IMG/VR virus record: IMGVR_UViG_3300032024_000177
Span: 1-7,733 of that record
DNA from: a virus
Direction: 5' to 3' (one strand)
Length of the DNA: 7,733 nt
Under the pieces are notes generated by a model. It was not told where the DNA came from. It searched no databases and saw only the letters and a program-made list of their open reading frames with translations. Position 1 is the stretch's first letter; every line of letters starts with the position of its first letter. This document shows, in pieces, positions 6,424-6,472 of the stretch. A program made the translations under genes and the position numbers.

Positions 6424-6472
6424 TTAAGTCACCATGACTTAAGAGTCCACTGGTTATAGTATGTGGACTCTT
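6424..6472 (-). other. Ff-type (+) strand origin core: nicking hairpin plus an adjacent 8-3-8 inverted repeat
   Basis: The minus strand reads AAGAGTCCAC-ATACTATAACCA-GTGGACTCTT followed by TTAAGTCA-TGG-TGACTTAA. The f1 ori reads GAGTCCAC-GTTCTTTAATA-GTGGACTC followed by TTGTTCCA-AAC-TGGAACAA. The stem sequence and the geometry are the same. Confidence 0.75.

Follow-up and report, generated by a model that had tools for sequence, protein, structure and literature searches.

Does the pair of palindromes that ends three nucleotides before the gene II (gII) start codon of this filamentous phage serve as its origin of rolling-circle replication, or as something else? The window, by which we mean the whole 7,733-nt stretch of DNA analysed here, carries an exact 55-nt terminal overlap (positions 1-55 and 7679-7733) and thus corresponds to a circular genome of 7678 nt. 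Its gene order is that of an inovirus, with gII (406 aa), a gV-sized ORF, the major coat protein, gIII, gVI and a Zot-like gI; the gIII-like protein (2641-4197, minus strand) matches the Pfam family Neisseria_TspB over its C-terminal 110 residues (E 3.8e-14). Given that the named homologues of the gene II protein (pII) come from Methylococcaceae MAGs, Methylovulum MAGs and a Methylobacter tundripaludum prophage, the host is very probably a Methylococcales methanotroph. No GenBank phage was matched in a megablast with the whole window, Rfam reported no family at gathering score, and the window was absent from the viral, genome and metagenome collections, in which the best pII match reached 92%. 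At E 1e-20 or better, 365 homologues of pII were counted in public data.

Anatomy of the element and of its predicted initiator

The phage coding strand is the minus strand of the window, on which the element is laid out as follows.

6463..6474, minus strand: left arm of the nick palindrome, TTAAGAGTCCAC (repeat search), whose core GAGTCCAC is that of M13 and IKe
6451..6462, minus strand: loop of the nick palindrome, ATACTATAACCA, 12 nt, containing the predicted pII nick
6439..6450, minus strand: right arm of the nick palindrome, GTGGACTCTTAA, which with TATAACCA forms the best-conserved block of the origin
6424..6442, minus strand: 8-3-8 palindrome TTAAGTCA-TGG-TGACTTAA, with 8-nt arms that are 100% complementary (repeat search)
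6416..6467, minus strand: presumed counterpart, by position, of M13 domain A (5769-5819), including the gII start codon

The order of stem-loop, 8-3-8 repeat and gII start codon given in the preliminary description was borne out letter by letter on the minus strand. Its stem is likewise real and perfect, but longer than the 10 nt first assigned to it, since the repeat search returned 12-nt arms with 100% complementarity around the 12-nt loop. The palindrome arms occupy 6442-6435 (TTAAGTCA) and 6431-6424 (TGACTTAA); TTAAGTCA overlaps the right arm of the hairpin, so that TTAA is common to both structures. Behind the palindrome follow ATC (6423-6421) and the gII ATG (6420-6418), which leaves a spacing of 3 nt. 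Within the window, the hairpin pattern is found a single time, where 0.01 matches would be expected with three mismatches permitted, and the palindrome arm occurs once in the whole genome. With a z-score of -4.1 for the single-stranded DNA fold of 6405-6560, and with hairpin and palindrome both kept in dozens of related phages, this is a non-chance sequence element.

For comparison, the M13 origin reads GAGTCCAC GTTCTTTAATA GTGGACTC TTGTTCCA AAC TGGAACAA, and the annotated viral-strand origin of IKe reads GAGTCCAC TATGTTTAATA GTGGACTC TTGTTGCA TTT TGCAAC. Aligned to both, the window has an identical 8-bp stem (GAGTCCAC/GTGGACTC), the same TT junction and the same 8-3-8 geometry, as the preliminary description had proposed on the basis of f1. 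The repeat itself is indeed unlike that of f1, with arms of AAGTCA versus GTTCCA in M13 and a centre of TGG versus AAC. At the sequence level, the element has the defining features of the Ff core origin in compact form, and we are confident, short of certainty, that it is the plus-strand (viral-strand) rolling-circle origin of this circular inovirus, in a core-only version of the Ff type. The palindrome is then predicted to be the sequence-specific site for the C-terminal domain of pII, and of pX.

The gene that follows has the corresponding properties:

5200..6420, minus strand: gene II, 406 aa, predicted rolling-circle initiator (Pfam, alignment)
5200..5580, minus strand: gene X equivalent, C-terminal domain only, with an in-frame internal start (MKTLNTYD...) and AAGGG upstream
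5398..5418, minus strand: codons for pII/pX residues 335-341 (SQCTFDR), the predicted specificity element (covariation)

The gII product matches the Pfam families Phage_CRI (E 1.9e-40) and G2P_X_C (E 3.7e-10), is about 30% identical to the pIIs of IKe and Ff, and begins with MIDMLVLR, as does M13 pII. Its Tyr189 (codon 5854-5856) aligns with Tyr197 of M13, a tyrosine that is invariant in the alignment and that we take to be the nicking residue of f1 pII, and its internal methionine aligns with Met300, the pX start of M13. Judged by this homology, gII encodes a true initiator of the Ff type. An AlphaFold (AF2) model of pII (pLDDT 85) had a single significant PDB match, RepDE (4cwc_A), an initiator of rolling-circle replication from staphylococci, and a search of the PDB by sequence gave no pII homologue. 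Because a fold search with the isolated pX-domain model produced no significant structural match, we do not assign a helix-turn-helix, winged-helix or other named DNA-binding fold to this domain. Among the relatives, two public pII calls start at an ATG or GTG inside the palindrome centre (L141 at 8001, protein P0036, 427 aa; L137 at 1501, protein P0009, 411 aa); as the conserved MID[MK]LVLR start lies downstream, both are likely mis-annotated.

The preliminary description had also placed the nick in the 12-nt loop, and a CTTT^AA-like motif, CTAT^AACCA, is found there on the strand with gII sense, in keeping with that claim as far as sequence goes. M13 is nicked at CTTT/A (PMC11765958). The 11-nt loops of Ff, IKe and others fit the pattern nnnnTnT^AAT[AG], that is, seven bases, the nick and AAT[AG], and the 11-nt loop ATACTATAACA of two relatives (L022 and L057) bridges this family to the 12-nt loop of the window in the loop alignment. 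The homologous break therefore falls at CTAT^AACCA, and pII probably cuts between T6456 and A6455, which puts the nick 5 nt from the right arm instead of the 4 nt originally suggested. Independent rearrangements in relatives begin at AACCA as well, namely a half origin (L076/L095/L096) and duplications (L112 and L128), breakpoints that are suggestive support for this placement and nothing stronger.

Relatives and the covariation of the palindrome with pII

An exact-pattern scan detected the hairpin in 68 IMG/VR contigs. As this set is biased by construction, relatives were also gathered by pII similarity alone among viral contigs, genomes and metagenomes, which gave 46 loci. When up to one mismatch was allowed per arm, the hairpin was present upstream of gII in 39 of these 46 loci; four carried rearranged half-sites and three lacked it within the DNA available. 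From hairpin to gII ATG the distance is 22 nt in the window, 22-80 nt for all 16 distinct pIIs that are at least 68% identical and 30-1351 nt in more distant relatives, so the butted layout is a trait of the window's clade and not the oddity of a single genome. Similar origins, with the loop [AG]TACTATAAC[CA]A at 21-80 nt from gII and pIIs 64-92% identical, occur in inoviruses and prophages of Methylococcales, for example in Methylobacter tundripaludum OWC-G53F, Methylovulum MAGs and Methylococcaceae MAGs; we found no literature that describes these methanotroph inoviruses or their origins. The AAGTCA palindrome is common to the window, L134 (pII 92% identical) and L099 (73%), whereas in most relatives the arms differ; the 16 closest distinct pIIs go with 10 types.

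For four relatives (L134, L135, L090 and L091), nucleotide homology to the window sets in at 6471-6474, where the origin has its left edge, and extends across gII, gV and the coat gene (gVIII), while the genes upstream are mosaic. Such a boundary at the origin's edge is what a replication module would be expected to show. In the closest relatives, an upstream ORF has been called through the origin (L134 766-1227, L135 1197-1508, L136 1329-1508 and L137 1326-1523). This ORF follows the sole open frame there and has its stop in ATGATTGA across the gII start, and the window keeps this frame at 6413-6670 (minus strand, 85 aa, TTG start). Either these ORFs are gene-calling artefacts, or the origin is embedded in a coding sequence that is translationally coupled to gII.

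We next consider how constraint is distributed over 38 distinct origins, which aligned without gaps. The columns of the right arm GTGGACTCTTAA and of TATAACCA are invariant and the nick block TATAACCAGTGGACTCTT is nearly so. The left arm takes uncompensated changes, giving variants with mismatches such as GGGTCCAC, GTGTCCAC, GCGTCCAC and GAGGACAC, and one pair switches from G-C to A-T on both sides. Given that this arm is degenerate in L137, L075 and L105, hairpin extrusion may be unnecessary. In the palindrome, changes on both sides were observed at all six inner pairs, which are paired in 85.5% of cases versus 34-43% with a slid partner, and the covariation score was reached by none of 500 shuffles. 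This is the pattern expected of a sequence-specific nick site beside a symmetric protein-binding site with a presumably drifting specificity.

Palindrome type did not track overall pII identity (Mantel r 0.11), and GTCTCA, for instance, was found with pIIs 47-80% identical to that of the window. We therefore scanned all 7-residue windows of pII against palindrome distance, controlling for whole-protein distance. Residues 335-341 stood out, with a partial Mantel r of 0.58 versus 0.25 for the next independent window, and none of 1000 label permutations reached the maximum. As the N-terminal codons adjoining the palindrome showed no association with its type in the same scan, while the associated segment lies 1 kb off, physical linkage was rejected as the cause. 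The segment falls within the part common to pII and pX and, in the AF2 model, opens helix 336-348, after helices 310-325 and 327-332. Palindrome arms and pII segments (numbered here as residues 334-340) combine as follows:

AAGTCA: MSQCTFD (window, L099)
GTCTCA: MSR[ASP][TN]F[YFH] (several clade members)
GAGACA / GCGACA / GGGACA: M.[ITL]RTF[DQN] (several clade members)
GTATCA / GTAACA: M.RM[TN]F (several clade members)
GTACCG: [SN]NTF (several clade members)
GTTGCA: TMERTTFWR (IKe clade)
GTGTCA: TMDRKTFWR (IKe clade)
GTTCCA: TMPRNSFWR (M13)
GTTGCA: TMERTSFWR (L117)

Two comparisons illustrate this relationship: L117 and IKe, whose pIIs are 36% identical overall, nevertheless both have GTTGCA arms and TMERT[TS]FWR, and P0002, a pII 84% identical to that of the window, differs from it in both palindrome and segment. 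The relationship was then evaluated on held-out contigs of eight previously unused homologues. Five carried a known motif and the predicted palindrome (P0001 AAGTCA, P0002 GTCTCA, P0043 GTAACA, P0036 GTCTCA and P0032, in which the predicted GTACCG is present on one arm). For P0037, the predicted xxGACA was missed and AAGCAA was found, matching the nearest training motif, that of L100. The remaining two are new Q336 variants, with AAGTCA/AAGCCA and AAGTCG. The earlier suggestion of a co-evolved pII specificity thus gains support, in that the arms covary with each other and track residues 335-341, a prediction that was upheld on held-out contigs. We found no literature that maps a specificity element of pII and, to our knowledge, the DNA-binding determinants of the pII family have not been mapped.

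Drawing on homology with f1 and with the pT181 family, a structural relative, we propose the following mechanism. On supercoiled replicative-form DNA, pII would bind the 8-3-8 palindrome through its C-terminal helix (about 336-348), and the adjoining nick palindrome would present CTAT^AACCA. Tyr189 would then nick the coding strand between T6456 and A6455, leaving a 3' OH to prime host-driven strand displacement; after one round, pII would cleave the regenerated site and circularise the displaced strand. As pX consists of this C-terminal domain, it too would bind the palindrome. With the core extending into the gII start codon, transcription of gII probably passes through the gene's own origin, and since the site abuts that start, binding of pII or pX may also throttle gII expression.

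A broader reading, to which we give an even chance, is that the origin is modular: a nick hairpin joined to a fast-evolving palindrome that is read by a single pII/pX helix, with specificity classes that reassort and a code that can be read. The palindrome would be read by helix positions 1, 2, 5 and 6 (residues 336, 337, 340 and 341). If so, co-circulating methanotroph inoviruses would fall into many replication-specificity classes that have been repeatedly reassorted at the origin; both the tandem full-plus-partial origins and the break in homology at the edge of the hairpin hint at such exchange. It would then be possible to read from natural variation, in the manner of a code, which residues in the pII family recognise which bases.

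Competing readings and neighbouring elements

Instead of marking the origin, the palindromes could control gII expression and nothing else, either as a DNA operator or as RNA hairpins masking the ribosome-binding region along with the start codon, with replication starting elsewhere. The element does end 3 nt from the ATG, its RNA fold is stable (z -3.5) with a predicted helix of AGUCAUGGU with AUCAUGAUU that covers the start codon, and GGTGA at the palindrome centre, 8 nt from the ATG, could act as a Shine-Dalgarno-like sequence. A position close to the start codon is, however, not a constant of this element, which lies 300-1350 nt from gII in distant relatives and is thus independent of it. 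Moreover, the conserved block is that of experimentally defined origins and the nick motif has no second copy in the genome. A regulatory side-effect would be compatible with an origin and is no alternative to it; regulation as the sole function strikes us as very improbable.

The element might also be a relic or secondary copy of an origin that is no longer used, with replication beginning at another site. Such copies exist among the relatives, where partial or duplicated origins are seen in L076, L088, L099, L105, L112 and L128. In the window, by contrast, the element is the sole copy in a complete circular genome, both of its palindromes are perfect, and its 8-3-8 palindrome belongs to the very class that its pII segment predicts, as is also the case in L099 and L134. 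We therefore hold a relic to be highly improbable here.

The rearranged origins are of interest in themselves. They were observed in L076/L095/L096 (at about 2967), L112, L128, L130, L088, L099 and L105, and comprise half origins without the left arm, tandem duplications starting at AACCA and, in L088, L099 and L105, a complete origin and, behind it, an incomplete one whose palindrome differs. These arrangements point to recombination at the nick site, or to aberrant initiation and termination there, and to swapping of the specificity module. L095/L076 additionally carry, at 692-1477, a second, distant gII-like ORF (25% identity) along with an ORF132 homologue, 1.5 kb upstream of the half origin, and may represent a tandem or mosaic element.

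As an intrinsic terminator or attenuator closing the ORF123/ORF132 operon, the element would account for two stable stem-loops 3' of ORF132. A T-run does lie nearby, but just 5' of the first stem, and neither stem is followed by one (the following sequences are TTAAGTCA and ATCATGATT). The terminator scan lists no site here, the sequence of the stem, beyond its pairing, is kept across phages with unrelated upstream genes, and in L134-L137 an ORF is called straight through the element. This function is accordingly given next to no weight, and the same holds for a minus-strand origin, packaging signal or XerCD attachment site, all of which are likewise viral-strand hairpins, since the element specifically matches the Ff plus-strand origin and since two separate hairpins suit these roles better, one at 7596-7695 (longer, z -7.5) that has a dif-like site and one at 6502-6547 that is the better minus-strand origin candidate. 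The plus-strand origin thus remains our preferred reading, and the elements around it are the following.

6502..6547, minus strand: GC-rich hairpin (perfect 10-bp stem, repeat search) that separates the ORF132 stop from the origin
7318..7347, minus strand: sigma-70-like promoter (consensus match only), the sole coding-strand match upstream of ORF123-ORF132-gII

The GC-rich hairpin, possibly a part of the origin, is a candidate for a minus-strand origin or for a terminator. In L012, L013, L138 and L140, stems of this type differ in sequence yet pair, and the loop motif GAGGAnAnCCGA is kept. A conserved AATTWCGnnACGYTTTTT block follows the hairpin and runs up to the origin (to 6475). The promoter scan found no sigma-70-like promoter between ORF132 and gII, and TATAAC in the loop of the origin was rejected as a -10 box, as it has no -35 partner. 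If the predicted promoter at 7318-7347 is used, gII would be transcribed through the origin. A divergent 81-aa ORF (7341-7586, plus strand, phrog_5642), whose L012 homologue is 54% identical, faces this promoter in a layout that resembles the repressor/operator switch of temperate inoviruses.

The imperfect hairpin of about 100 nt at 7596-7695, which by virtue of the terminal overlap includes positions 1-17, sits in the AT-rich non-coding region (-27.3 kcal/mol, z -7.5, single-stranded DNA). One of its arms carries the dif-like sequence CGCATAA-N11-TTATGT (7665-7688, minus strand), which has no other match in the window and lies outside the origin. This motif, with a centre of 9-14 nt, was seen in 60 of the 141 fetched loci; in L087 it lies at the prophage edge beside host efflux genes, and the far end of L141, also a prophage edge, has the canonical CGCATAA-TGTATA-TTATGT. 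The hairpin looks like a CTX-type folded XerCD attachment site, a packaging signal or both.

Comparison with Ff, IKe and pT181 origins

With domain A of the Ff phages (f1/M13/fd) the window's origin shares the GAGTCCAC/GTGGACTC stem, an AT-rich loop with CTnT^AA, the TT and 8-3-8 palindrome directly 3' of the stem, a nicked strand that has gII sense, and a homologous initiator with the same N-terminus, catalytic tyrosine and internal pX start. The loop, in contrast, has 12 nt instead of the 11 nt of Ff, with the additional base 3' of the nick. The window also differs from Ff in what follows the core. In M13, domain A (5769-5819) is succeeded by domain B (5820 to about 5910), which holds IHF sites and becomes dispensable in Ff if pII is altered or more abundant (PMC5405960). 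In the window, the hairpin lies 22 nt from the gII ATG, compared with 213 nt in M13, and the preliminary description was right that this leaves no space for an enhancer. Domain B is absent: the AT-rich enhancer with its IHF sites, about 100 nt long, was not found 3' of the core, the IHF consensus WATCAANNNNTTR had no match anywhere in the window in a consensus scan, and the first 100 nt of gII are slightly AT-richer than the gene as a whole (35.6% versus 39.6% GC). No conserved motif that could act as a third, delta-like repeat was detected 3' of the palindrome across the clade, this position being the gII start in the window; a TCATGATT-like motif after the palindrome in L012 and the window was dismissed as a delta repeat, as it is not general across the clade.

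The origin lies in a 128-nt gap between ORF132 and gII, with the large AT-rich non-coding region two ORFs away. Its placement between an upstream gene and gII, outside the large region, was therefore described correctly at the outset, although the contrast drawn with Ff is partly semantic because the Ff origin is likewise upstream of gII. In Ff, the full bipartite origin shares the main intergenic region with the packaging signal and the minus-strand origin, which is not the setting of the window's origin. Vector contamination of the window was discarded, as it shares merely the 8-nt stem with f1. Two other IMG/VR contigs (L010 and L056) have an exact f1 origin identical to that of phagemid vectors and are probably vector contamination in a public collection.

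Stem and geometry are also common to IKe and I2-2 (Lineavirus), where again the nick hairpin is the same and the palindrome different. Unlike in the window, the IKe origin lies about 310 nt from gII in the usual intergenic layout, and IKe pII is 31% identical to that of the window. According to the title of a 1986 paper, the gene II proteins of Ff and IKe are reportedly functionally non-interchangeable.

Taken together, the analysis assigns a predicted origin, likely nick site and putative initiator to a whole undescribed lineage of methanotroph filamentous phages, some members of which are integrated at dif in Methylobacter genomes. The origin appears to be a natural Ff-type core without an enhancer, pressed against the coding sequence or, in close relatives, inside it, in line with Ff laboratory mutants able to do without domain B. 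By tying the palindrome to a seven-residue stretch of pII/pX, it offers a testable answer to how initiators of this family recognise their own origin, and it suggests orthogonal origin/initiator pairs for the production of single-stranded DNA.

The closest parallel in organisation is found in the pT181 plasmid family. In pT181/pC221 (RepC/RepD), a conserved stem-loop, ICRII, presents the nick and is adjoined by a plasmid-specific palindrome, ICRIII, which is bound by a C-terminal helical domain with specificity from a six-residue element, the centre of the recognition site lying 23 bp 3' of the nick (PMC4797284). The window similarly combines a nick hairpin, a specificity palindrome centred about 22 nt 3' of the predicted nick and a short C-terminal element, and RepDE tops the structural matches of the pII model. 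The differences are that pII belongs to Pfam Phage_CRI and not to Rep_trans (PF02486) and has no match in the PDB at the level of sequence, that this is a phage and not a plasmid, that pX has no counterpart in pT181, and that the specificity element of the window is predicted from covariation only. The window's origin thus resembles the logic of pT181 but is not a member of that family and, as this logic was already known, represents an extension of it rather than a new principle.
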